Shown in pieces: positions 31,976 through 45,014 of a DNA stretch of 64,000 nt. The notes below the pieces were generated by a model. The model made no database searches, was not told the origin of the DNA, and was given only the letters and a program-made list of their open reading frames with translations. The translations under genes and the position numbers were made by a program. The stretch's first letter is position 1; every line of letters starts with the position of its first letter. This stretch comes from Macrostomum lignano (Eukaryota). The DNA lies in contig NIVC01000296.1 of the NCBI GenBank assembly GCA_002269645.1, positions 62,001 to 126,000 of the forward strand. Direction: 5' to 3'.

Positions 31976-33033
31976 TAAAATAATTAACAAAAGATGAATT
32001 GTCGCTAATTCTGAGACTGCATCCTTCCAGACGTGGCAGCAGCAATAGGCTTGCTGCAGTCGCTGTTGAAAGCGGTGGATTGTGGGTTTGTGAAATTTAG
32101 CGACGCATTCATAGAATTTAGCTCATACGATGACAGTAAAAGAAAACAGTATCGAGAAGGCATGCATACAAAGGCATATAGCTGTCCAGGTGCAAAGCAT
32201 GTCGAAAAACAAAGCTTGCAGCGTTTTTGCCATAGACAACTAAGGAATGTGCAGTAGCCAAGCGATATGCGTACGGAGGCTTCGCGGAGTGAAATTGTGC
32301 ACCCCAAATTTAAGACAGCATTCGAGCAATCCATGGTTTTATTTGTCCATGGGTCAAAAAAGCATCAATTTTGTCAAGCTCAGCCACATGTAGGTATATG
32401 AGATTGATCGACACGATAGCACCTGACAATTCAATTCAGACTCCACCTTATGAGCTTAAGTTTACATAAAAGTCCCAAATTTTCATCTTTGCTTGCTCTC
32501 TCCTATCCCAGGTCCAGTTTTTGTCACTTTTTTTGCCAAATCCAGCTTCCTGGTGTCACTGTGACCAAAATGACGTATCATTTGTGTACATAGGTTACTT
32601 TAGGTTCACTTTATGAGCTTAATTAAGTTGACAGGCCCTTTTAAAATCATGCACAAAATTCCGGAACGCGGCTCGAACTTACCTAATAAAGCTTTCAAAA
32701 CTAGCAAGTTCATGTCGGACCCAATTTAATCCAGATCGATTTAATAGCTATTGCGGATAACAGTTTTATTCTTAATGGAAGAAAATTTATATTTACTTAC
32801 TTCCTAATTCTTAGCGTCATATATACGTGCTACATGTATACATCTTTGAAGACACTGCAGGCGGAAATGCACAGTAATCGCAGTTTACACCAAAGCCCAC
32901 ATCTACATCTAATAGCTATCCATAGAAATCCGACGTACTGCTGTATATGAAAGTTACGTACAATTAAAGTTAAGATTGGATCGCAAAACAGATAGACGCA
33001 TAGATACACGTGAAAGCAGCTAACCTTCTTGAC

Positions 33034-33575
33034 ACTACGTAGTGTGCAGAAAGTTGTTGATTTTGGAGGTGAGGTGGGTGTCAGAGCCAATGCAAATTCA
33101 GCGCCTATCTAAATACATTAGACCAATTCTAATTGGTCCAGAGTCATTATGTGAGATATGCATGTAACTCTCATGTAAATCTAATTATACATGTAATCAG
33201 TGTACACTGTGTCGTACAGAAGCGACGACCAGTACAATATAGTACGCATAATTAGCGCTCCGCAGTTGTTGTACGCAGAAACGCGCGCGCCCCCAGCCCC
33301 GCACAATGCAGCATTGGTGTAGCGCAGAATTAACTGTCCATATTAACTGTCCATATACCAAAAATTGGCAGAATTAGAGCGCCCACCCACCCCATAACTG
33401 GCCATATTATTACTTGTCCATATTTACTGTCCATCCCAAAATTGGTGTACACGCAGAATTGTAGCGCCCACCCATCCAAGAAAATATTCTGTCGCCTCTC
33501 ACAATTAATTGGAGGCCCCGCGCGGAGGCATGATGAGTCAGTCAGCCAGTAAATCGCCGCTGTCCACCCCTCTGC
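33034..33575 (+). repeat. Left terminal inverted repeat of the Polinton
   Basis: 33034-~33470 is the reverse complement of ~42390-42825 with 5 mismatches by manual comparison. After an indel, 33514-33575 again matches 42221-42282. Confidence 0.95.
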
Positions 33576-33830
33576 CCTGCGCTGGCCGCTATAGCTACCA
33601 GCAGTGTTACGCAACAACCCGGTCGAGCCACAATGCTAACTTTATAGCCAGACACGTCATCAAGGTGGGAAAACACAAACTTCTATGCATGAAATATTCT
33701 CGTAAATGCCAAACCAACTTTGTTCAGACAGCAAACTATAAATAAGAAAATTTGGATTCTCGGCCGTTTATCTAAATTCACCAAGTTCAATTAACAACCC
33801 AATCATTGGAAAACGCAGTGTTTGACAAGC

Positions 33831-34775
33831 AATTTTTGGTTGCCAAAGCACAAGAGGATCAGACCGACAAAGCATGAACTGCCAACAACTTGGAACAAGG
33901 ATTTCAACACCTCCAACGCCAGCACCGAAAATAGGCACAAAAGGCTCATTTTTCTGGAATCCTTGATAACGACAACACCGTAAAAAGCTCGTTAACATGT
34001 AATTAAAACAAAAACTTATTGAGACTCTCGGGTATATAAGCACCAACCCGGGGCACCAAGCACCCGTACCTGCAAAATTTTCTCGGATTCTCGGCAGTTT
34101 TTCAAGCTCAAATAACACCCCCACCACTAGTGCGAACAACGCAGCAAGTGCTGACAAGAAATGAGCTGGATTTCCAGAGACTACCCCCTATTATCGAACG
34201 AGGAAAAAGACGAATATCAGGCCTTGAAAAAATCTGCTGACTGGTTGTGCATTTGCCACAGCAAACCGATTTCCGAGCGATTAGTCACCTTCAATGCCAA
34301 GGTCGAGGAAATTGATCAAGGCCCCTACGACAGCCAAGACTACGCAGCAGCCAGGATAAATGAGCAACTACGGGACAAAATGAGATTCAAAGCTGATTTA
34401 GCACGAATGGAGAGATTACTGGCTCCGATACTAAGTGAAGAGCATCGCCAAAAATACGTTTTCGGAACCATCAAGATCTGTATAATCCGTCGTGGGAGGA
34501 GCAACAAAAGATTTGGAATTTTTGGTTGCCAAAGCACAAGAGGAACAGGCCGCCAAAGCTTGAACTACCAGCAACTTGGAGCAAGGATTTCAGCACACCT
34601 CCAACGCCAGCACCCGAAAATAGGAACAAAAGGTTCATTTTTTCCGGAATCCTCGATAACGACAACTCTGTAAAAAGCTCGTTATCGTGTAATTAAAACA
34701 AAAACTTATTGAGACTCTCGGGTATATAAGCACCAGCCCGGAGCATCTGCAAGCGCCCGTACCTGCAAATTTTTC
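33831..34775 (+). promoter_or_regulatory. Two diverged ~250-bp direct repeats (33831-34082, 34517-34775), each ending in a TATATAAG box upstream of an ORF
   Basis: Both share AATTTTTGGTTGCCAAAGCACAAGAGGA...GTAATTAAAACAAAAACTTATTGAGACTCTCGGGTATATAAGCACC. TATA boxes at 34033 and 34723; ATGs at 34161 and 34792. Confidence 0.8.
34161..34673 (+). CDS. Polinton ORF1, unknown function (170 aa; C-terminal part runs into repeat copy 2)
   Basis: ATG-initiated ORF downstream of a TATA box inside the element; no recognisable motif. Confidence 0.5.
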   Translation: MSWISRDYPLLSNEEKDEYQALKKSADWLCICHSKPISERLVTFNAKVEEIDQGPYDSQDYAAARINEQLRDKMRFKADLARMERLLAPILSEEHRQKYVFGTIKICIIRRGRSNKRFGIFGCQSTRGTGRQSLNYQQLGARISAHLQRQHPKIGTKGSFFPESSITTTL

Positions 34776-34791
34776 TAAACAGACAAGAGAC

Positions 34792-35544
34792 ATGGAGACA
34801 GTGCAAGACTTCAACTGCGTCAAGCGAGAGCTGCTGGCACTCAAACCGCGAGGTCCGAGCTTCAACGGGGTTGAAACGTTTGACATTGAATATGACAAAC
34901 AGGGACCTCTCTACTTGGCCAATGCGGTCCCTGTTTTGATCGTCAAGGGCGTGCGTACTGACAACGAAGGTCGCGAATTCATCATCATTGCACAAAAACA
35001 CATTGAAAGCTGCATACCCTACACTTTCAACACTGTGGCGGAGCACCTTTCCAGCGAAAGTCTAGCTCTGCTGGGCTACAACCCAGCGTTTGGAGGTGAC
35101 AGTGCAGCGTTTGGGCTGGCTCACGACTTTAAAATGTACGACCAAAACGGACTGCCTGTAGAGGATTACAAAAACAAGAGCGGCTACTACAGGATTCTGT
35201 TTACTCTCGACACGGCCGTGATTCGAGACGCTGTTTTGACCGCAATGCCAAAAATTCAACAGCTACAGTTTGTCGAAGAAGCCAAACAGGCATTCGATCG
35301 TTGCTATTGGACGCCACCTCCAAAAATCAAGGTAGGCGCCAAGAAAGTAAGCAAGAAAGCAAAGAAACCACCAAAGCTTGTCAAGGAGAAGCAGCCAAAG
35401 GTGCCTAAAAATCAGGCCAGAAAGCGACAGCATCAATCGAAACTAGTAGCAGCCAACGAATCAAAGAAGCGGTCGAAAGCCCCCAAGAAGGATACGAAAG
35501 TAAAAACTGCCGAAAAATCTACTTGCAGAACGTCGAGTGTGTGA
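34792..35544 (+). CDS. Polinton ORF2 (250 aa), possible OB-fold ssDNA-binding protein with Lys-rich tail
   Basis: ORF after a TATA box. FKMYDQNGLPV...YYRILFTLDTAVIRDAVLTAMPKIQQLQF resembles the beta-strand pattern of viral (T7 gp2.5/NCLDV-type) SSBs. The functional call is tentative. Confidence 0.55.
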   Translation: METVQDFNCVKRELLALKPRGPSFNGVETFDIEYDKQGPLYLANAVPVLIVKGVRTDNEGREFIIIAQKHIESCIPYTFNTVAEHLSSESLALLGYNPAFGGDSAAFGLAHDFKMYDQNGLPVEDYKNKSGYYRILFTLDTAVIRDAVLTAMPKIQQLQFVEEAKQAFDRCYWTPPPKIKVGAKKVSKKAKKPPKLVKEKQPKVPKNQARKRQHQSKLVAANESKKRSKAPKKDTKVKTAEKSTCRTSSV

Positions 35545-36002
35545 ACCGAGTGTTTTGCGCGAAATGGAGCCGCATGCCTGACTTGGACTGGGCGAACGCA
35601 CGGACATTTCGCAGACCAAGAGCTCTTATCAATTTGCGAATAGGAAAATGTACAATCAACTTTTTTCAGCGTTCTTTGTCTGCAATTGTATTCGGTTGTC
35701 GCTCAGTCAACCAAGTTTTGCGTCTTTTTCCTCAATGTAAACCAATTTCTGTTGTTGTTACCACTAGTACTTACCGCGCTGAAGTAGACAGATGGCCAAA
35801 CTTTTTCCAAATTGCATACTCCGGGTCCCGCTGGGTGAAGTGGGAGTGTGAAGTTTTCAATGGAATAGTAATAAAGTCTCCATTTCGCAATGCTAAATGT
35901 TTATTATGCGGAAAGAATGGCCGCCTTGTTTTCCTTGGAATACGAAACTTTAAAGAGCTCTGTCAAATGTACGATCATGTGACTAGCGTTTTGCATGTCT
36001 AA
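35523..36002 (+). CDS. Compact TATA-binding protein (TBP)-like protein encoded by the Polinton
   Basis: LQNVECVN ~ TBP [41 protein letters not shown] ~ [45 protein letters not shown]...[27 protein letters not shown] ~ [12 protein letters not shown]...[27 protein letters not shown]. Both TBP repeats are present with TBP-like spacing. First ATG is at 35574. Confidence 0.75.
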   Translation: [159 protein letters not shown]

Positions 36003-36142
36003 TCCATGTAGCTGTTGCGTAACTTTACTGCTTTACCACTGTACCGAATTTGTATGTACGTACAAGCTGCTATGAAATGGTCTATAAATATATTGTGCAT
36101 AAATTGCAGTGCACTGCAACCAACATCTTTTTGCTAAACAAA

Positions 36143-36499
36143 ATGACAAACGGAATCTCCAGACTATGTTCTTGTCGCGGCGAGCTCGCAGAGCTCGCCA
36201 AAGCCCGTCCCACTCTTCGGCGGTTCATTATTCGAGGTGCAGGCAAGGAACTGATTCATTGTCTCTGTGAATTGAGTCACAACGTGCTCCGGGGAAATAT
36301 CGATCTTTCTCCGAAACAGTATCTGCGATTAAAGCGATACAGAAGATCGTTGCGTGAATTGGCAGACACAAAATTGTCTATAAATAGGAAGAAGAATATG
36401 CTTCTCTCGAATCCTCAAGTCGGTGGCTTTCTACCCATCCTTGCATCTGTTGCTGCACCGCTAATATCAAGCCTGTTTGGCGGACTACTTGGTCGCTAA
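36143..36499 (+). CDS. Polinton basic core protein with adenovirus pX-like C-terminus
   Basis: 118 aa, Arg/Lys-rich (LCELSHNVLRGNIDLSPKQYLRLKRYRRSLR). Ends QVGG|FLPILASVAAPLISSLFGG, like adenoviral pX MRGG|ILPLLIPLIAAAIG. Confidence 0.7.
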   Translation: MTNGISRLCSCRGELAELAKARPTLRRFIIRGAGKELIHCLCELSHNVLRGNIDLSPKQYLRLKRYRRSLRELADTKLSINRKKNMLLSNPQVGGFLPILASVAAPLISSLFGGLLGR

Positions 36500-36500
36500 A

Positions 36501-37154
36501 ATGAATAAATACGTTGTTGTACCAGAAGAAGAATTTAATAGACTAAGTCAAGGCGCACCCCGAGAAATTGCATCCAAAACAGAATATGAAAAACTCATTG
36601 AATACAACACTCAACTCCAAAATAAACTAAGTCAGATCAAGCAAAAGAAGAGTAATAGTTTTCCTGAACGACAACAACGTGTTTGGGACATGCTGACAGA
36701 AAGATACCCAAATTTGGAGTACAACAAGTCGTGGGAAATTGTATTTGATGGAAAAACCTGGCCAGGAAGCAATATTTTCGATCTATTGAAGGAGATTACA
36801 TCGAATAAAAGGCGTGACCGCCCAAGCCCAAAATATAGTACCGCTTTTTGGGCCCTGGCCGAAGAGGCAGATATTGCAAAAGCTCTACTAGGACGACGCC
36901 AACAAGAAGAAGTCAGTGTGAAAAAAGAAGTCGGCACAGATCCGGATCGAGACGATTTTTTAGTCGAGCAAGCAATTGGAACTAATGATTTCTACAACGA
37001 CTTCCACAAAGACCAAGCCAGTGGCCTGAATGAAATTAAAAAATATGAAGATCGTGGCAGCAATGCCTACAGGCATGCTTCATACCAACTTCGCGAACCA
37101 AAGAGGCGGCAGAAACCAGCAGTAAAATACGAGACGTTAAAAAACTATAAATAG
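36501..37154 (+). CDS. Conserved Polinton/adintovirus protein of unknown function
   Basis: 217 aa from the ATG at 36501. EIVFDGKTWPGSNIFDLL...P...AFW matches a motif I recall in Maverick ORFs adjacent to the pX-like gene. Confidence 0.6.
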   Translation: MNKYVVVPEEEFNRLSQGAPREIASKTEYEKLIEYNTQLQNKLSQIKQKKSNSFPERQQRVWDMLTERYPNLEYNKSWEIVFDGKTWPGSNIFDLLKEITSNKRRDRPSPKYSTAFWALAEEADIAKALLGRRQQEEVSVKKEVGTDPDRDDFLVEQAIGTNDFYNDFHKDQASGLNEIKKYEDRGSNAYRHASYQLREPKRRQKPAVKYETLKNYK

Positions 37155-37287
37155 AAATCATTTTCATGATTTATAATCTGTTTTTGGATCATGGGTGCCG
37201 CAGCTGTAACTTCAAAGCTTTGCTCAGACAAACCGTCTGTGGAGTTCAAGTGTAATTACTCATGCTGTGCATCGACTCTAGTTGCGA

Positions 37288-37979
37288 ATGAGGGTGAAAA
37301 CCGCTCTTCGGAGAGTGTACGAACAGGGGGACGCCGCTTTTACAAATGCTGCCCGTGTATATCAGGAGGCCAAACGGCTGGTCCCCTCCCTGACGAGACG
37401 CCAAACCGACGAATGGCTGAAGACCCAATCGAGCTACACCCGGCACAAGAGGGTTAAAAGAAAATTCCGAACCGGAAAAGTAATGTCGGGAGGCTTCATG
37501 GAAACTGTGCAAGCGGATTTGATGGACATGTCGCGATACGAACAATGGAATGATGGTCATCGATATATTCTAGTTGCAATTGACGTGCTTAGCAAATTGG
37601 CTTTTTGCCAGCCAATAAAATTGAAAAGCGACACTCCAAAGGCTTTTGAAAGCATGATCAAAGACTTCCCCATTAAGCCTTTATATCTACACGTTGATCG
37701 AGGTACCGAGTTTTATAACAATCGCATGCAGAACTTACTGAAAGCCAATAATATCAAAATGTACAGTACAAACTCTGTATACAAGGCAAATATGGCTGAA
37801 AGGCTGATTAGGACTCTCCGAAAACGGTTCGACCGGACCGCTTTGTTATAGACAAAATTCTGCGTCGCAATGTCGTCATCAATGGTGTTGCTCATCATTT
37901 CGCTAGTTGGCGCGGCTATCCCGAGTCGTTCAATGCATTTGTACGAGTTGAGGAAGTTATAAATATAAGACAAGGATGA
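37288..37979 (+). pseudogene. Retroviral-like (rve) integrase with internal deletion and out-of-frame C-terminal chromodomain
   Basis: DDE triad: YILVAIDVLSK, LHVDRGTEF, MAERLIRTL; stop at 37849-37851. Another frame (37833-37979) reads FVIDKILRRNVVINGVAHHFASWRGYPESFNAFV, a chromodomain-like sequence. Confidence 0.88.
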
Positions 37980-38013
37980 ACACACATACACTCGAAACGT
38001 GTAGTATATTACA

Positions 38014-39166
38014 ATGCATCTATTCCTACCTAGCAATGCGTGCGTTGAGCACTATCCTGAGAATAATTCGGCACATTATAGCATTAATTTGCCCGACACC
38101 CTCCACTTTCCGAATCATGAAGTCTGCATCGAACGGATCTACTTTTGTAAAGAATTCAAAACCGTCCCCGATAATCGAATGGTTGATGTCCTGACCAACG
38201 CTCCCGAGGATGAAGTGATTGACATTGAGGTTAGAGAAAAACCCGCCTCCACGTATTAAACAGTTTGCGTCGGTTTCTCTCGCCGCGGGGCTATCAACAG
38301 CCAACGAAGTGGTTGATGCAATCATTGCCGCTCTAAAATATGAGCAAGACGATAATGCGATGATTTGCATTGAGCGTTCACAGGAAGGCCAAATTTCAAT
38401 TGTGAACAAATCATGGTATGGTGCGAACATTAGGCTGTCCAGTAATGTGTGTAGCATGTTTAAAAAGGTTGACGACGCTGGAAATAAATCAAATATCGAA
38501 GTAACGACTTTTTTATTAAACCCAAGAAATTCGTTAGTATTCGCTATAGAATTGGAGTCCTCCTCCATAGAGAGTCCCATGACTCTAACGTTTGAAAAGA
38601 GTGTCTGGCCTTCTAGAACGTCACTGCGGATTGCTAAAAGATTCTACCGCACGCCTGACGAGCTCTTAAATTATGTTAATGGAGCGCTTTGGAGCGTCGT
38701 TTCAAAGCTCCCAATAAGTCCAGCGACGAGAGTGGATGCATTCAGCTACAACCCTTTTCTGAACCGGTGTGAGTGCAAACCCATTGAAAACATTTTATTC
38801 GACATTGGAGAGCTTGCTGCCATTCTCGGCTTTCGCGAAGATGTTTTCAATGAAACTCCAAAGACCGCTAAACGACCAATCGATTTAACAAATGGTGTAC
38901 AAACTATGTACATCTATTCAAATATTGTCGACTCTGCCATTGTTGGAGACGTCAAAGTCCCCCTGCTTGGGGCAATTCCTTTGAATGAAAAGGTATACGG
39001 CGAACGAGAGTACTACGAGTTTGTCAATCCATCCTACTTACCGTTGGTGAAACACCCATTCAAAACCATTGAGGTGCAAATCTGTGACGATATGGGCAAG
39101 TTAATGGATCGGATTCTTCGAGGCAAAACTGTTTTATCGATCAACATTCGTGAAATTAAGCTATAA
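38014..39166 (+). CDS. Minor capsid protein (penton), split by a 1-nt frameshift near 38219-38259
   Basis: N-terminus LFLPSNACVEHYPENNSAHYSINLP and C-terminus IDLTNGVQTMYIYSNIVDSAIVGDVKVPLLGAIP...PSYLPL...TIEVQICDDMG are typical of Polinton penton. The two halves are in different frames. Confidence 0.85.
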
Positions 39167-39210
39167 ATAAAGAAGTTTTCACGAATAAAAGGTAGCAACT
39201 GATCGACAAT

Positions 39211-39579
39211 ATGCCTTCAATCTTGATCGGAGGAGCTTTACCGGTATTTTCCGGTGCACAGCGCGGCAACGGCCTGTTTGGCAGCATTGCCCGATTTGCC
39301 CTGCCAATTTTAAAGAGTTTTGGCAAAAATATTCTTCGCCACGGAACACGAGCCCTAGCTACAACAGTTAACGACACACTCGATCAAGGCGGGAACTTGA
39401 AAGAAGCAGCATTGCGTAACTCTGTCCAGGCAGCTAAAGATGCTTTCAAGGACACTGTCGCACAACGAGGTAGCGGCAGACAAAGACGAAGAAAAATGAC
39501 TAACAAAAAAACGAGAAAAAGACTGCAGCATTCTGATATTTTCGACTCTATAAATAAAAAAACCCGTGTCAATAACTGA
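39211..39579 (+). CDS. Polinton core/cement protein precursor (pVII-like), basic C-terminus
   Basis: 122 aa with LIGG|A, QRGNG and QRGSG glycine motifs, amphipathic LFGSIARFALPILKSFG and Arg/Lys tail; lies directly upstream of the capsid gene. Confidence 0.7.
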   Translation: MPSILIGGALPVFSGAQRGNGLFGSIARFALPILKSFGKNILRHGTRALATTVNDTLDQGGNLKEAALRNSVQAAKDAFKDTVAQRGSGRQRRRKMTNKKTRKRLQHSDIFDSINKKTRVNN

Positions 39580-39622
39580 TCTGTCTATTAGAGCACCACA
39601 CTAAGCCGCTGTTGAAAGAAAA

Positions 39623-40906
39623 ATGACTGAGTGCCTGTGTACAAAGTCGGAATTCGAGCTATTTGCTCCTCGCGCACACCAAATTGCTGCAATTAGCGCT
39701 ACCACTGAAGAAGTTCACCCTGTTGCCAGTGTTGAAAATGCCAGCGTGGTCGAATTTAGGATTGTTGGTGGTGAGACGTTTATCGATCTTAACGACATTG
39801 ACCTCGAGATTAAGGCCCGCGTTAAGCAGTCTAATGGTACAAATCTTGCTGCTGATTCGAATGTTGCGCCGGTCAATTACGTCCTTGAAAGCATGTTTAA
39901 AAACGTCACGTTGACAATCAACGGGACACACGTAGAGTCGAGCAATAACAACCACGCTTACAAAGCCTACATTCGCACGTGTTTGAATTACGGACACGAT
40001 TCAAAAACCAACCAACTGAGAATGATGGGCTACGCAAAGGACGCTGGAGGTCAAATGGCTGTGGTTGGAAATCCTGGCTTTGTAGCCCGCAAGGCGATGG
40101 CAGCAAACTCACGCACCTTTCACCTTTATGGACCTCTTAGTTTAGACTTTTTTGTTACCAACGACCGAATGCTACTGCCATACACTGATATGGTAATTAC
40201 GCTGACCATGCACAATTCCGGCTTCGTTCTGGAAAACCACGCGGACGGGGTTGATGCGCGGCTAGTACTCGAGAGTGCCAAACTACATGTGCGCCGCGTC
40301 AAGGCAAACCCCCAATTGGCATTGGAGATTGAAGAACAACTAGGCAAACAGAATGCAATCTATCCGATTGAGCGACTTGTTGTGCACAATACTTCAGTGG
40401 CTGGCGGTGTTCGGGACATGTCAATCAATAATATATTTCCTGAACAAAAGCCTAAACTAGTGGTTGTTGGCATGGTAAACAGCGGCGCGTACAACGGTGT
40501 GGCTACACATAACCCGTTTAAATTTGAGCCATTTGGGGCAGACAGTGTCGCTCTGTATAAGGACGGAGTCAGTCTGTGTGGACAACCGTTTACTCCTCGA
40601 TTCGGTGTTCATAACTATGCTCGCGAGTATGCCATGCTACTAAAAAGCCTAGGAAAGATGAATCGGGACCTGGATATTGACGTATCATATTCCGACTATG
40701 GAGCTGGCTACTGCTTCTTCGCCTGGAATCTCATGCCCGACATGGAGCTGGGCGGGCATAGCATGCCTCGCGAGCGAGGGAATCTGACGCTACAAATAAA
40801 GTTTTCTGCTGCCTTGGCCGCAGGAATCAACGTGTTGGTGTTTGGCTACTTTGACAATACTGTGCAAATCACTCGCGGTCGTCAGGTTATTATAGACTAC
40901 GTGTAG
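39623..40906 (+). CDS. Major capsid protein (double jelly-roll, hexon-like)
   Basis: Intact 427-aa ORF. CTKSEFELF...HPVASVENASVVEFRI...FIDLNDIDL, LVVVGMVNSGAYNG...NPFKFEPF and YGAGYCFFAWNLMPD match Maverick capsid motifs (F54H12.2-type, from recall). Confidence 0.92.
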   Translation: MTECLCTKSEFELFAPRAHQIAAISATTEEVHPVASVENASVVEFRIVGGETFIDLNDIDLEIKARVKQSNGTNLAADSNVAPVNYVLESMFKNVTLTINGTHVESSNNNHAYKAYIRTCLNYGHDSKTNQLRMMGYAKDAGGQMAVVGNPGFVARKAMAANSRTFHLYGPLSLDFFVTNDRMLLPYTDMVITLTMHNSGFVLENHADGVDARLVLESAKLHVRRVKANPQLALEIEEQLGKQNAIYPIERLVVHNTSVAGGVRDMSINNIFPEQKPKLVVVGMVNSGAYNGVATHNPFKFEPFGADSVALYKDGVSLCGQPFTPRFGVHNYAREYAMLLKSLGKMNRDLDIDVSYSDYGAGYCFFAWNLMPDMELGGHSMPRERGNLTLQIKFSAALAAGINVLVFGYFDNTVQITRGRQVIIDYV

Positions 40907-40954
40907 AAACAAACATCTTTTTTATTCTCGAATAACGGCTATATTCATGCCGAT

Positions 40955-41404
40955 ATGAATAGTCTAGATATATTAGAACGTCTAATACTACCTGTCCCTG
41001 TTCGAGTAACACCAGTTGACAGGATTCCGCAGCCTGTTTATCCTGCTGCATACGTGATTAACTTTGACACTGGCAATCTACCAGGCACTCACTGGGCTTT
41101 AATTTGTCTTCATGCCGATGAGAGCGTGACATTTTTTGACCCCTTGTGTATCGATCCTGTGCCAGATTTATTAAAGTTGTGGATCGCAAAGTATGTCCCT
41201 GTGGAGGTGGCCATGAACCGGCATCCTGTACAGCATCCGCTGAGTGTGACCTGCGGGGCTCATGTAATATTTGTGGCTGAAAAACACTTTCTGGAGGGTC
41301 TGTCAATTGAAAAAATATTGCGCGACTGTTATAGCACAAATCTTTACGAGAACGACTTGATGGTGCAGAATCACTGTCTACAAATAAAGCAGCATCATCC
41401 ATAA
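40955..41404 (+). CDS. Adenain-like cysteine protease
   Basis: 149 aa with catalytic motifs INFDTGNLPGTHW (His), TFFDP (Asp) and QHPLSVTCG (Gln/Cys). Confidence 0.92.
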   Translation: MNSLDILERLILPVPVRVTPVDRIPQPVYPAAYVINFDTGNLPGTHWALICLHADESVTFFDPLCIDPVPDLLKLWIAKYVPVEVAMNRHPVQHPLSVTCGAHVIFVAEKHFLEGLSIEKILRDCYSTNLYENDLMVQNHCLQIKQHHP

Positions 41405-41406
41405 AT

Positions 41407-42056
41407 ATGATTGGGCGGCCTATCAAAATGTATCAAACAATAGACCCCGACTCTTTAAAATTTGCCCCCAAAACGTCGGCAATTTTTGCTGGGGTGGCTC
41501 AAAGCGGCAAGACCACACTTGTGAAAAACCTATTGAGACAAGAATTTTTTCAAGATCCGAAGCCGATTCGTGTAGACTGGTTTGGCCACTATCCGGATCC
41601 TGAACTGTTTGAATTGCCGTACCCTGTAAATTTTCGTTCGTGTACATTTGATCCTGAACAATATGTCCCTGAACCAAATATTCTGCTTGTCGTCGATGAC
41701 CAAATGCATGCCATGGAAAAGAGTGGCGCTTTTACAACTTTTTTCACGCGCAAAGTCTCCCACGTGGGGTTCCGACTTTGGTATCTTGTGCAAAACCTGT
41801 TTGCAAAGGGTAAGGAGCACCGAACTCAGTCGCTCAATTCGAACTACCTTGTTTTATTCCGCAATGTACGGGATGCCAGCACAGTGTCTCATATTGCAAG
41901 GCAGCTGGTCCCCACTAATCCAAAAAGTTTTGTCAAAACGTATGAGGATCTACTCGCGACCCCTACTCATACTTGATTGTAAACTGTTTGCAAAATGCTC
42001 CTGCTCGCTATTATTCAAACGTTTTGGGTCGTCACCCAATTGTGTATGCTAAATAA
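41407..42056 (+). CDS. A32/FtsK-like genome-packaging ATPase; C-terminus frameshifted at a C4 run (41960-41963)
   Basis: Walker A GVAQSGKT, Walker B LLVVDD, plus LVQNLF...SLNSNYLVLFRNVRD. The -1 frame continues PYSYLIVN...VYAK* to 42056, followed by an overlapping AATAAA. Confidence 0.9.
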
Positions 42057-42220
42057 ATATACGTATCAAAGCTCGGCCGGCTTTTTGTGTAAATATATAT
42101 ACGCCTTTTGAAAACTTATTTGGGAGAGGGGGTTGGGGGATGACGTAATTGTCTCGGAGTGTCGACGAGGGCTGAATTCTAGAGAGTGAAGTATGGAAGG
42201 AGTGGATGTAACAGGCTGCA

Positions 42221-42825
42221 GCAGAGGGGTGGACAGCGGCGATTTACTGGCTGACTGACTCATCATGCCTCCGCGTGGGGCCGCCAATTTTGTGGGGGTC
42301 ACAGACAATTCTGTGCGTACACCGATTTTGGGTGTATATATGGACAGTAAATATGGACAATTAATAATATGGACCGTTATGGGGTGGGCGGGCGCTACAA
42401 TTCTGCGCGTACACCAATTTTGGGATGGACAGTAAATATGGATAAGTAATAATATGGACAGTTATGGGGTGGGTGGGCGCTCTAATTCTGCCAATGTTTG
42501 GTATATGGACAGTTAATATGGACAGTTAATTCTGCGCTACACCAATGCTGCATTGTGCGGGGCTGGGGGCGCGCGCGTTTCTGCGTACAACAACTGCGGA
42601 GCGCTAATTATGCGTACTATATTGTACTGGTCGTCGCTTCTGTACGACACAGTGTACACTGATTACATGTATAATTAGATTTACATGAGAGTTACATGCA
42701 TATCTCACATAATGACTCTGGACCAATTAGAATTGGTCTAATGTATTTAGATAGGCGCTGAATTTGCATTGGCTCTGACACCCACCTCACCTCCAAAATC
42801 AACAACTTTCTGCACATTACGTAGT
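42221..42825 (-). repeat. Right terminal inverted repeat of the Polinton
   Basis: Reverse complement of the left TIR, with one extra internal subrepeat unit (CCATATT...GCAGAATT type). Confidence 0.95.
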
Positions 42826-45014
42826 CTTGACAATATACGGGTTTAATTCTACATGTATATCGGCGGTCGCGTGATCAAAGGTCATGATGATGCAATTTTT
42901 CTATGTTATGCAGCGCAGTTAGATAATTGTTACCTGCCAGCTATTCGGGGGTATGATTCTCGTATGGCTTGCCTACAGTTCGCATACACTATATATACTG
43001 AACAGTGATTAAAATGCTAATTTTTCGCCAGGTTGTTCGAAAATTTGTTCTCTTTAACATGATGCAAAGTTTTGAGCTAAATCTATGCAGACATTACATG
43101 GCATACTTATAACTCAGTGAGCACAATGGCACGGTACATGTATTTAGAGTTTTCAAGATTAGCAATTAATTAATATACTATATGTAACCTCATACCCTTC
43201 TGTTTGATTGTCTTTTGCTCTTTTGCTCTCGATCACCTCGTCCAGGAATAAATTATTGAGCTTTTGAGAGACGCTTTTTTGCAACTGAGCAGTCCTATTT
43301 AGGCCAGCACCGACGAGTGTAGCGCCCTCTGTACCTCTATAGCGACATGTACTCTTCTTAGTGGTTCTTTTCATGAATCTAGCATGCTTGCTATATATAT
43401 TTTTCACTAACTGATGGAAAACCCAACTTTTATCCATCACGCATGCTATTAAATTTATAACTGTAATCATCCATCATTATTTTTCTCTTTATCTCAAGGC
43501 GTCCTAGGACACAAAGTTAGCTCTGCGATTCTGTAGTTCCTGGAAGAGGAACTCTCGATTATCTTGGAGCACTGCTATTATAAGTAGACACACTCATGTG
43601 ATATTCACCCCATGGAACTTGTAGTTGTGTAGTTCAGTAGATTGAACATTGAACAGTTCTTATTCTTATTCAAATCTTAGCCGAAAAACACATCGGTCGT
43701 CATAAGTCTCGTTCGTGCATTAAAATCACTCAGCATTTAGTCGCACCATTTTAAGATCGCGTTTTCCACGAAGTTAAGAAATTCGCTGGTCATATTATGT
43801 TTATAAACTGTGTTTTAACATCGCCTGATTGTTTTACTGTACTTACCGACATTGTTTAATCTTGTATTCATGCACAAATTTATTTTTTTTACTATTTATT
43901 ATATTTTAAATTTTGCTCCTAAAAATTCAAATAGCTAAGCAAGCAATTTTGCTAGCTATTCACAATAAAGCAAAAGTATTATATATTTTATTATTATTTA
44001 ATTATTAAATTATTGGTTCATAAAATTTCTCTATTTTTTTTAGGAATGTTTTATGTAGACAGGATATTTTAATGAAAAAAGAATTTGATATTTTTATTAA
44101 GCTAAATAGCCCTATTCCAATTTACCAATAGACAATACAATCAAATGTAATCAGCTATAATGTTATAATAGGGCTCTTGTAGGTATAAAGCATTAAAATT
44201 AATTTTTTAAAGAATACAAAAGAAATAATAAGCAAATAATAAGATCCCTAGACTTATAAGCAAGGATAAGACTAATAAATAACTTTTTCAATAATACTAA
44301 CCTTGTATATAAGCAAGTAGGAGGGCTTCGAGTTCCTGTTGTTTTTTTACAGAGTTTTCGAGATAGTCTAAATTACCCGTCTTTGATTTGTGATTAAATC
44401 CAGCCCCAAGAGTCGGCAATAGAGGAGAGAGAGCTGCGTGGACAGAAGAGATCAGAGGGAAGATAAGAGCAGAGGGGAGAGATAAGAGAGGAGATAAGAG
44501 TATAGGTGAGATCAGAGGTAAAAAGAGGGAAGAGAGAAGAGAGAAGAGGAGAGAAGAGAAGAGAAGAGAGAAGAGAGCTGAGAAGGGAGCTAAGAAGAGA
44601 CACAAACGTTAAGCGGGCCGGATTGCTATTATGAAGTTTCAAAGGACCATCAGACCGGACAGAGAGGCAAAATAATTCTCCAGAAGTGAAGGTACGAGCA
44701 TGAGGATAAGTGGACCACGCTCGTACCCAAATGCAAACAAAAAACCTCAAACCAAGAAAGTACTACGAGCGCAGCATATGGTTCTTGAGCAGATTTTCAT
44801 TGTCAAAATGAACGCGCGATATTGAAACTTAAAAATCTGAAGTTTAAATCTGTAAAAAATAAATCTGCCGACCCTGTCGTCACATTTCCAGGAGGCTTCA
44901 AGTCCTCCAAGATGCAAACGAGACAAGGAGGTGAGAGTGGTGACTTGAAATTTGTCTTACAAAACCCTCATTAAACAGTTGCCGTGCCATTCATCTTGGA
45001 TTCCCTTCAATGCC

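Follow-up and report, generated by a model that had tools for sequence, protein, structure and literature searches.

The 64,000-nucleotide (nt) stretch of the Macrostomum lignano genome analyzed here (contig NIVC01000296.1, positions 62,001 to 126,000; hereafter the window) contains an endogenous element of the Maverick/Polinton (adintovirus-like) type, in which copies of a TATA-like box precede most of the structural genes and a further reading frame resembles the TATA-binding protein (TBP). The boxes, which are conserved, confined to one strand and narrowly spaced from downstream ATG codons, are a real and selected promoter-like feature, and we favor the element's own TBP-like protein as the factor that would read them. 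The genome contains dozens of copies of the element, which fall into two sister lineages: A, with a capsid identity of about 98-100%, and B, with about 88%. The element, its open reading frames (ORFs) and its boxes are given below, with box distances counted from the first T to the ATG.

33034..42825, + strand: Maverick/Polinton (adintovirus-like) endogenous element, 9.8 kilobases (kb), without a DNA polymerase gene
33736..33744, + strand: CTATAAATA box at the left end; no long ORF within 260 nt; in 8/8 fetched A/B copies
34033..34040, + strand: TATATAAG box, a copy created by an internal 260-nt duplication
34723..34730, + strand: canonical TATATAAG box and putative early promoter; ORF 34792 starts 69 nt downstream
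34792..35544, + strand: left-end ORF (ORF 34792), 250 amino acids (aa); conservation 74% in the first 180 codons, lost in the Lys-rich tail (32%)
35332..35528, + strand: predicted phase-0 intron (AAG/GTAGG ... TTGCAG/AAC) joining ORF 34792 to the TBP-like frame; in 8/8 A/B copies
35529..36002, + strand: TBP-like reading frame; 157 aa when counted from the predicted acceptor; ATG at 35574 not conserved in lineage B
36082..36090, + strand: CTATAAATA box between genes; pX-like ATG 60 nt downstream
36143-36499, + strand: pX-like ORF
36378..36386, + strand: CTATAAATA box inside the pX-like coding sequence (codons S-I-N-R), 122 nt before ORF 36501-37154
36501-37154, + strand: ORF 36501
37145..37153, + strand: CTATAAATA box where ORF 36501 ends; the small ORF starts 45 nt downstream and the integrase 142 nt downstream
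37191-37457, + strand: small conserved ORF, overlapping the integrase start
37288 (ATG), + strand: integrase, truncated in the window copy
37957..37965, + strand: TTATAAATA box; penton-like ORF 56 nt downstream; in a longer copy (L001) it falls within the last integrase codons
38014-39166, + strand: penton-like ORF
39161..39169, + strand: CTATAAATA box that overlaps both an AATAAA and the stop of the penton-like ORF; core-protein-like ATG 49 nt downstream
39211-39579, + strand: core-protein-like ORF
39548..39556, + strand: CTATAAATA box inside the core-protein-like coding sequence, overlapping AATAAA, 74 nt before the major-capsid-like ORF
39623-40906, + strand: major-capsid-like ORF
40955..41404, + strand: adenain-like protease ORF without an exact box; TACAAATA lies 164 nt upstream in lineage A only
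41379..41386, + strand: TACAAATA variant box, 49 nt before the ATPase ATG; same place in lineage B, at 48 nt
41428-41976, + strand: ATPase ORF, ATG conserved

Enrichment, conservation and spacing of the boxes

In total, the element carries seven sense-strand TATAAATA boxes, together with the TACAAATA variant ahead of the ATPase. The first-pass annotation of this DNA had reported exact CTATAAATA at 36082, 36378, 37145, 39161 and 39548 and TTATAAATA at 37957; all six are present on the + strand, and its list lacked the box at 33736 and the conserved TACAAATA at 41379. Its placement of these copies upstream of particular ATG codons holds at distances of 60, 122, 45, 56, 49 and 74 nt, except that the 37145 box, which had been assigned to the integrase, is nearest to the small ORF (45 nt in both lineages), the integrase start lying 142 nt away. 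Exact CTATAAATA occurs eight times in the window, always on the + strand; six copies fall in the element and, as had been noticed, only two in host DNA (5014 and 22998), against a mean of 0.39 in shuffled sequences, none of which reached eight in 100 trials. De novo word discovery in the structural module placed TATAAATA among its two top words, with six sense and no antisense occurrences where a Markov model expects 0.16. No box is conserved at the protease in lineages A and B. Beside the left end of lineage B's gene block, the stop codon of a Fic-domain ORF (PF02661, E 2e-10; L005:106-474) overlaps the leftmost TATAAATA box.

The annotation had suggested checking enrichment against a composition- and codon-aware null across sister elements, and had read the two copies lying inside coding sequence as a sign of selection. 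A null that preserves proteins and stop positions yielded a mean of 0.38 boxes compared with the six present, and not one of 1500 runs reached six; lineage B behaved likewise, so that the count lies beyond the null in both A and B. The copies at 36378 and 39548 do sit inside upstream coding sequences, and copies in coding sequence require rare codon choices (4/216, 3/72 and 4/72 combinations). Moreover, three boxes (36082, 36378 and 37957) are free of any overlap with stop codons or AATAAA, and the enrichment therefore does not reduce to overlapping stops and AATAAA signals, the outcome that the annotation had named as fatal to its proposal.

Comparison of the sister lineages points the same way. 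All eight fetched copies (four per lineage) keep the seven sense-strand boxes and have none on the antisense strand, and TACAAATA stands 48-49 nt before the conserved ATPase start in every one of them. Each box is 8/8 identical between A and B; the ungapped 30-nt flanks match at 9-25/30, and synonymous sites in four genes differ at 70-76%, near saturation. We consider it very probable that the boxes act as promoters, with a dual role as poly(A) signal possible at some of them.

The position of transcription starts can be approached through the leaders that follow the boxes. From 79 boxes in lineages A and B and in two further lineages, C and D (described below), we used the 57 that have a recognizable gene within 165 nt, the start being set by homology for four; the other 22 had no long ORF, a broken copy, a duplicate or a distant start. 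Box-to-ATG spacing has a median of 51 nt, and 40/57 distances fall at 38-60 nt. ATG triplets occupy 26 of 1425 positions at +6 to +30 after the box and 8 of 1931 beyond (Fisher p 7e-5, an optimistic value because the sites are related), while out-of-frame ATGs number 18 up to +30, five at +33 to +35 and none farther on, where about 21 would be expected. This depletion of upstream ATGs beyond +35 fits starts of the RNA polymerase II (Pol II) type and is at odds with starts inside the box; the leader sequences thus point to Pol II-like transcription beginning about 30-36 nt downstream of the boxes.

The TBP-like gene and its predicted splicing

The TBP-like coding frame begins 15 codons ahead of the 142-aa ORF that an ATG-based reading gives, has no in-frame ATG near its start in lineage B, and shows a dN/dS of 0.07 over its 157 codons. 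The lineage B orthologue, 78% identical, matches the Pfam TBP family at E 9.5e-5 (22.6 bits, against a cut-off of 22.9), and a profile built from six viral sequences alone matches host TBP with 95% probability (E 3e-8). Structure prediction returned a two-repeat saddle fold with a pLDDT of 88 and a Foldseek TM of about 0.78 to solved TBPs, from a 17-sequence alignment that includes host TBP and therefore partly imposes the fold. The 142-aa ORF found no sequence match in Pfam or the PDB, and a homologue of the protein had no usable match in the ESM Atlas. Together, the modeled TBP fold and the signature of purifying selection lead us to regard the TBP-like gene as real. On the DNA face, alignment to host TBP indicates that the equivalents of F116, F190 and N69 are kept and those of F99, F207, N159, T124 and T215 are changed, in what we take to be yeast TBP numbering.

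Homologues outside this genome are few, with two found for the TBP-like frame and five for ORF 34792; IMG/VR scans with the TBP alignment, the capsid and the capsid alignment returned no relatives. A metagenome scan matched one 2.8-kb contig, and a histone H4 proxy search gave no match.

Inspection of the region ahead of the TBP-like frame revealed no box within 200 nt upstream and, instead of a conserved start codon, the marks of an intron. The phase-0 acceptor is present in A, in B and in at least five of the seven lineage C loci examined, where a clear pyrimidine tract precedes it. The phase-0 donor falls where conservation of the upstream ORF ends, in 8/8 A/B copies and in the four lineage C ORFs examined, and the same donor appears as K-V codons in the five outside homologues of ORF 34792. 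A conserved donor and acceptor of matching phase predict an alternatively spliced fusion, and the TBP-like frame is probably spliced onto the upstream early gene. Two other ways to begin the protein may be considered: trans-splicing could supply the start codon, as flatworm spliced leaders are described as ending in AUG in the part of the work consulted (PMC12582326), and the TTG at 35523 may serve as the start. We rank cis-splicing above trans-splicing because the phase-0 donor is conserved exactly where the conservation of ORF 34792 stops.

Searches with the ORF 34792 family gave nothing significant in Pfam, PHROGs or PDB profiles (one of 11 members hit a family that binds single-stranded DNA, at E 0.55); a single-stranded DNA-binding role for this ORF is a guess. 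Homology between ORF 34792 and the ORF at the same position in lineage C was likewise considered and is unsupported (3% probability).

Boxes and factors in co-resident Maverick lineages

A Pfam TBP search of the genome, with 150 of 330 candidates scored, yielded a large multi-copy set in addition to host TBP and a TRF2-like gene. The scored matches comprise three host TBP loci, three TRF2-like loci and well over 80 loci in elements, to which the separately found A/B and C families add. The nine multi-copy matches that were fetched all lie in polymerase-bearing Mavericks, which we call lineage D; lineages C and F came from capsid and ATPase searches, and lineage E from a neighboring element. 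A Pfam-positive TBP-like gene is present in C, in D and in F, and ahead of structural genes each of these three lineages has a distinct box of its own, typically at 40-60 nt from the start codon. Sense-strand densities per kb are 0.94 for TATAAATA in A/B, 0.82 for TATAAG[CT] in C, 1.07 for TTAAGAA in D and 0.71 for [CT]ATAAGAA in F. The density of TATAAATA is 0 in C, D and F, and boxes of foreign lineages occur at 0-0.08 per kb except for TTAAGAA in F (0.29).

Lineage E differs. Two copies followed end to end between their terminal inverted repeats have no TBP-profile match (best E 0.26 among E loci), and 1/25 starts has a TATA-type box, the ATG being preceded by a run of 90% A+T. Such runs resemble the promoters of large DNA viruses and virophages, and by this analogy lineage E may depend on a helper virus. 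These elements (L093:3366-L112:2567 and L091:6262-L113:2427) are very abundant, encode a pox-A32-type ATPase and have an A/T run ending in AAAAA before most ATGs.

The left-end genes use a second class of box. The canonical TATATAAG at 34723 is 8/8 identical in lineage B, within flanks that match at 10/30 and 9/30. The annotation had assigned a different box to two left-end genes; the copies at 34033 and 34723 are both real, but one arose by duplication (33831-34083 vs 34517-34776) and the sister lineage has a single copy, so that two independent early promoters are rejected in favor of one 260-nt duplication. In C and D, the genes at the left end (PC4-like in D) likewise lie mostly behind TATAAAAG or TATATAAG, and the lineage F TBP gene lies behind TATAAAAG. 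Set against the early box, the predicted late box is distinct in A/B, C and D; set against canonical TATA, it is clearly distinct in D, partly so in C and F, and not in A/B. The two promoter classes that had been proposed thus recur in four Maverick lineages of this genome, with the terms early and late assigned from gene function.

Other features of these lineages were noted in passing. The TBP-like gene of D and F (L024:4523-5600; L100:1420-2512) begins with an ATG of its own and overlaps the final part of a preceding ORF, which by eye resembles a DEDD-type exonuclease and has no Pfam match. In lineage C, a deoxynucleoside kinase (PF01712, E 9e-21) directly follows the TBP-like gene (L011:4132-4803; L012:1809-2387), and some elements have a dUTPase-like ORF, judged by eye, behind the lineage box.

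On balance, we think it likely that TATAAATA is the shared core promoter of the structural, predicted late genes, read by the element's TBP-like protein together with host Pol II. That the reader is the element's own factor is a reasonably likely reading of the correlation across lineages, because each TBP-like gene pairs with a box of its own and the TBP-less lineage has none. Under this model, host TBP would start a left-end early transcript at TATATAAG. Left unspliced, that transcript would encode ORF 34792 with its Lys-rich tail; phase-0 splicing would instead fuse the first 180 residues of ORF 34792 to the TBP-like domain. The viral protein would then occupy the TATAAATA boxes, and short-leader mRNAs would begin about 30-36 nt downstream for pX, ORF 36501, the small ORF and integrase, penton, core protein and capsid, with the ATPase served through TACAAATA. 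Every co-resident Maverick lineage would have its own factor-box pair. A more tentative extension, which we would put just short of even, is that animal Mavericks run a minimal late switch of their own, in which captured, fast-evolving TBPs, produced in some lineages by alternative splicing to an early gene, co-diverged with private boxes, giving orthogonal pairs (TATAAATA, TATAAGC, CTTAAGAA and YATAAGAA) within one nucleus.

Several observations weigh against this model. The window's TBP-like frame has no Pfam TBP (PF00352) match, and the single-sequence model of the 142-aa ORF failed (pLDDT 38); the good model came from an alignment with host TBP in it. Two of the four DNA-intercalating Phe equivalents are kept, and both Thr and one Asn equivalents are lost, so the window protein may not bind DNA as TBP does. 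At the predicted intron, eight runs, consisting of assembled contigs whose RNA status is only guessed and which cannot show start sites, contain no spliced joint, and four of the contigs run through the acceptor in unspliced form. (Depth over 34700-35900 is somewhat higher in four runs; we left this unused because contigs cannot rank genes.) The 57 boxes of the spacing analysis were picked from 79 and are non-independent. In lineage D the TBP gene itself lies 64-82 nt behind a D late box, a poor fit to a simple early-to-late order. Finally, the comparison spans four TBP-bearing lineages and one TBP-less lineage, of which D and F are related and E is distant, and such a correlation is not causal proof.

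Host promoters supply a further point on this side. We fetched 28 host stretches and found a start in 26. Two of three sampled H2B genes have TTATAAATAG, which contains a TATAAATA-type TATA, at -92/-98; HSP70 has CTATAAAAG in eight copies, and an H2A-variant gene has TATAAGCT at -52. As TATAAATA fits what we take to be the canonical TATA consensus (TATAWAWR) and occurs at host H2B, and TATAAGCT at the H2A variant, host TBP may read the A/B and C boxes. The boxes would then be real promoters read by host TBP, TATAAATA being a strong canonical TATA retained ahead of every structural gene, with the viral protein acting as a decoy for TBP inhibitors, a repressor of early or host promoters, or a sequence-blind recruiter of Pol II. 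This alternative gains from the loss of half the DNA-wedging Phe, from the lineage D TBP gene behind a late box and, as far as the excerpted account goes, from the binding of TATA and TATT alike in vitro by the Epstein-Barr virus (EBV) TBP mimic (PMC4893493). We nevertheless judge it unlikely: host TBP tolerates varied TATA sequences, as the host boxes themselves vary, which leaves one exact word per lineage, differing between lineages, unexplained; the D box, CTTAAGAA, contains no TATA at all and yet has equal spacing; and early genes of the same elements carry a different, canonical box.

Alternatively, as with virophages, the boxes could serve as late promoters that a large helper virus transcribes with its own RNA polymerase, with starts inside the motif. 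Late motifs of the poxvirus type (TAAAT) and the baculovirus type (TAAG) direct such starts; TATAAATA contains TAAAT, the C, D and F boxes contain TAAG, and an element without a DNA polymerase needs help in trans. We hold this to be improbable, since starts within the box would place the 18 out-of-frame ATGs at +6 to +30 into leaders, with none beyond +35, since every box-bearing lineage keeps its own TBP-like gene, and since lineage E, the helper-type lineage, has neither boxes nor such a gene. Least probable, and largely refuted, is that the motif is a by-product of gene ends (stops, AATAAA and conserved residues in a compact AT-rich genome): most copies are indeed located close to or at the point where an upstream ORF ends, those at 37145 and 39161 overlapping stops and those at 39161 and 39548 AATAAA, but the protein- and stop-preserving null, the three boxes free of either signal and the rare codons already described stand against it, as do the C, D and F boxes, which contain no AATAAA and yet occupy the same position.

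The element among known systems

The element is bounded by terminal inverted repeats with 449-nt arms, 98% complementary, and flanked by a 6-bp target-site duplication (CTTGAC at 33028-33033 and 42826-42831). Its rve integrase (PF00665) scores above the cut-off at E 1.8e-8, although a deletion of ~370 bp near 37825 truncates the window copy compared with the 355-aa integrase of L001; the penton-like ORF is split by a frameshift near 38256, unlike that of L001. Searching with the protein-primed type B DNA polymerases of lineages C and D (tblastn), we found no match in the window element or in L001-L008, whereas the controls L012 and L024 matched; the element is thus at most a polymerase-less member or derivative of the Maverick/Polinton group. 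Its protease and ATPase match counterparts in polymerase-bearing lineages (E 4e-9 and 6e-26), the lineage D protease in turn exceeding the cut-off for Peptidase_C5 and the C and D ATPases matching Pox_A32 weakly. More broadly, the protease, ATPase and pX-, penton- and capsid-position genes match polymerase-bearing Mavericks of the same genome. The putative double jelly-roll capsid and single jelly-roll penton have no sequence match in Pfam or the PDB and are assigned by 31-33% identity to the same-position genes of polymerase-bearing elements.

The small ORF (37191-37457; L005:3635-3913) is Cys-rich, lies in another frame than the integrase, is 66% identical between lineages and has no Pfam match; it starts with MGAAA, which we take to be a possible myristoylation signal. 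The element ends ACTACGT...ACGTAGT (33034-33040, 42819-42825) are unlike the AGTAGT/AGTAGA ends of the C, D and E copies examined, and copy L042/L035 ends in ACTACT.

Mavericks/Polintons are among the most widespread endogenous DNA viruses of animals, and the timing of their expression is essentially undescribed in the literature searched. In what was available of Starrett et al. 2021 (PMC8502044), 'TBP' is confined to a figure legend, where it labels a gene, and 'promoter' is absent from the main text; the available portions of PMC8097293, PMC10748475, PMC11131425 and bioRxiv 2026.06.19.733378 contain neither TATA nor TBP terms. The literature searched, which set supplements and subscription papers outside its scope, held no analysis of Maverick promoters in relation to TBP. 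The predicted start sites and splice junction are direct handles on the proposal. In addition, a four-by-four set of natural TBP variants and boxes within one host could reveal how TBP recognition can change, and a simple sequence sign separates lineages with their own TBP-like gene from the lineage with helper-virus-like promoters.

Compared with published Mavericks, Polintons and adintoviruses, as far as the consulted parts of PMC8502044 and PMC8097293 describe them, the element shares terminal inverted repeats, a 6-bp duplication, an rve integrase, an adenain-like protease, an ATPase and pX-like, penton-position and capsid-position genes. It departs from them in having no polymerase gene and in its ACTACGT...ACGTAGT ends, where the vertebrate elements have AGT/AG motifs.

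Virophages offer a second comparison. Mavirus shares a late motif with its giant virus, CroV, and the motif is read by the helper. Here, too, one conserved motif precedes most genes of a small, capsid-coding, integrating element, but spacing and upstream ATGs point to starts of the Pol II type, and a TBP-like factor is encoded by the element itself. Large DNA viruses also encode diverged TBP folds, and the BFVD matches to our TBP-like model are such homologues (TM 0.6-0.75). Those proteins serve viruses that have their own RNA polymerase, whereas the Maverick element encodes none.

The closest parallel may be the TBP mimics of beta- and gamma-herpesviruses (ORF24 of KSHV, the herpesvirus associated with Kaposi's sarcoma, and BcRF1 of EBV), which drive late genes from TATT boxes, according to the sections consulted (PMC12529657, PMC4893493). 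The present system differs from that account in being a ~10-kb integrated element with a bare TBP domain of ~160 aa, probably spliced to an upstream domain, and with no recognized six-protein complex; in addition, the A/B box is a canonical TATA in its own right, and one genome houses several lineages whose boxes differ. In common are a diverged, virus-encoded TBP fold, canonical TATA at early genes, one fixed variant on structural genes and the use of host Pol II, which for the element is our reading. If this parallel is true, Mavericks would run an early-to-late cascade through a TBP mimic, independently of herpesviruses and with far fewer parts.

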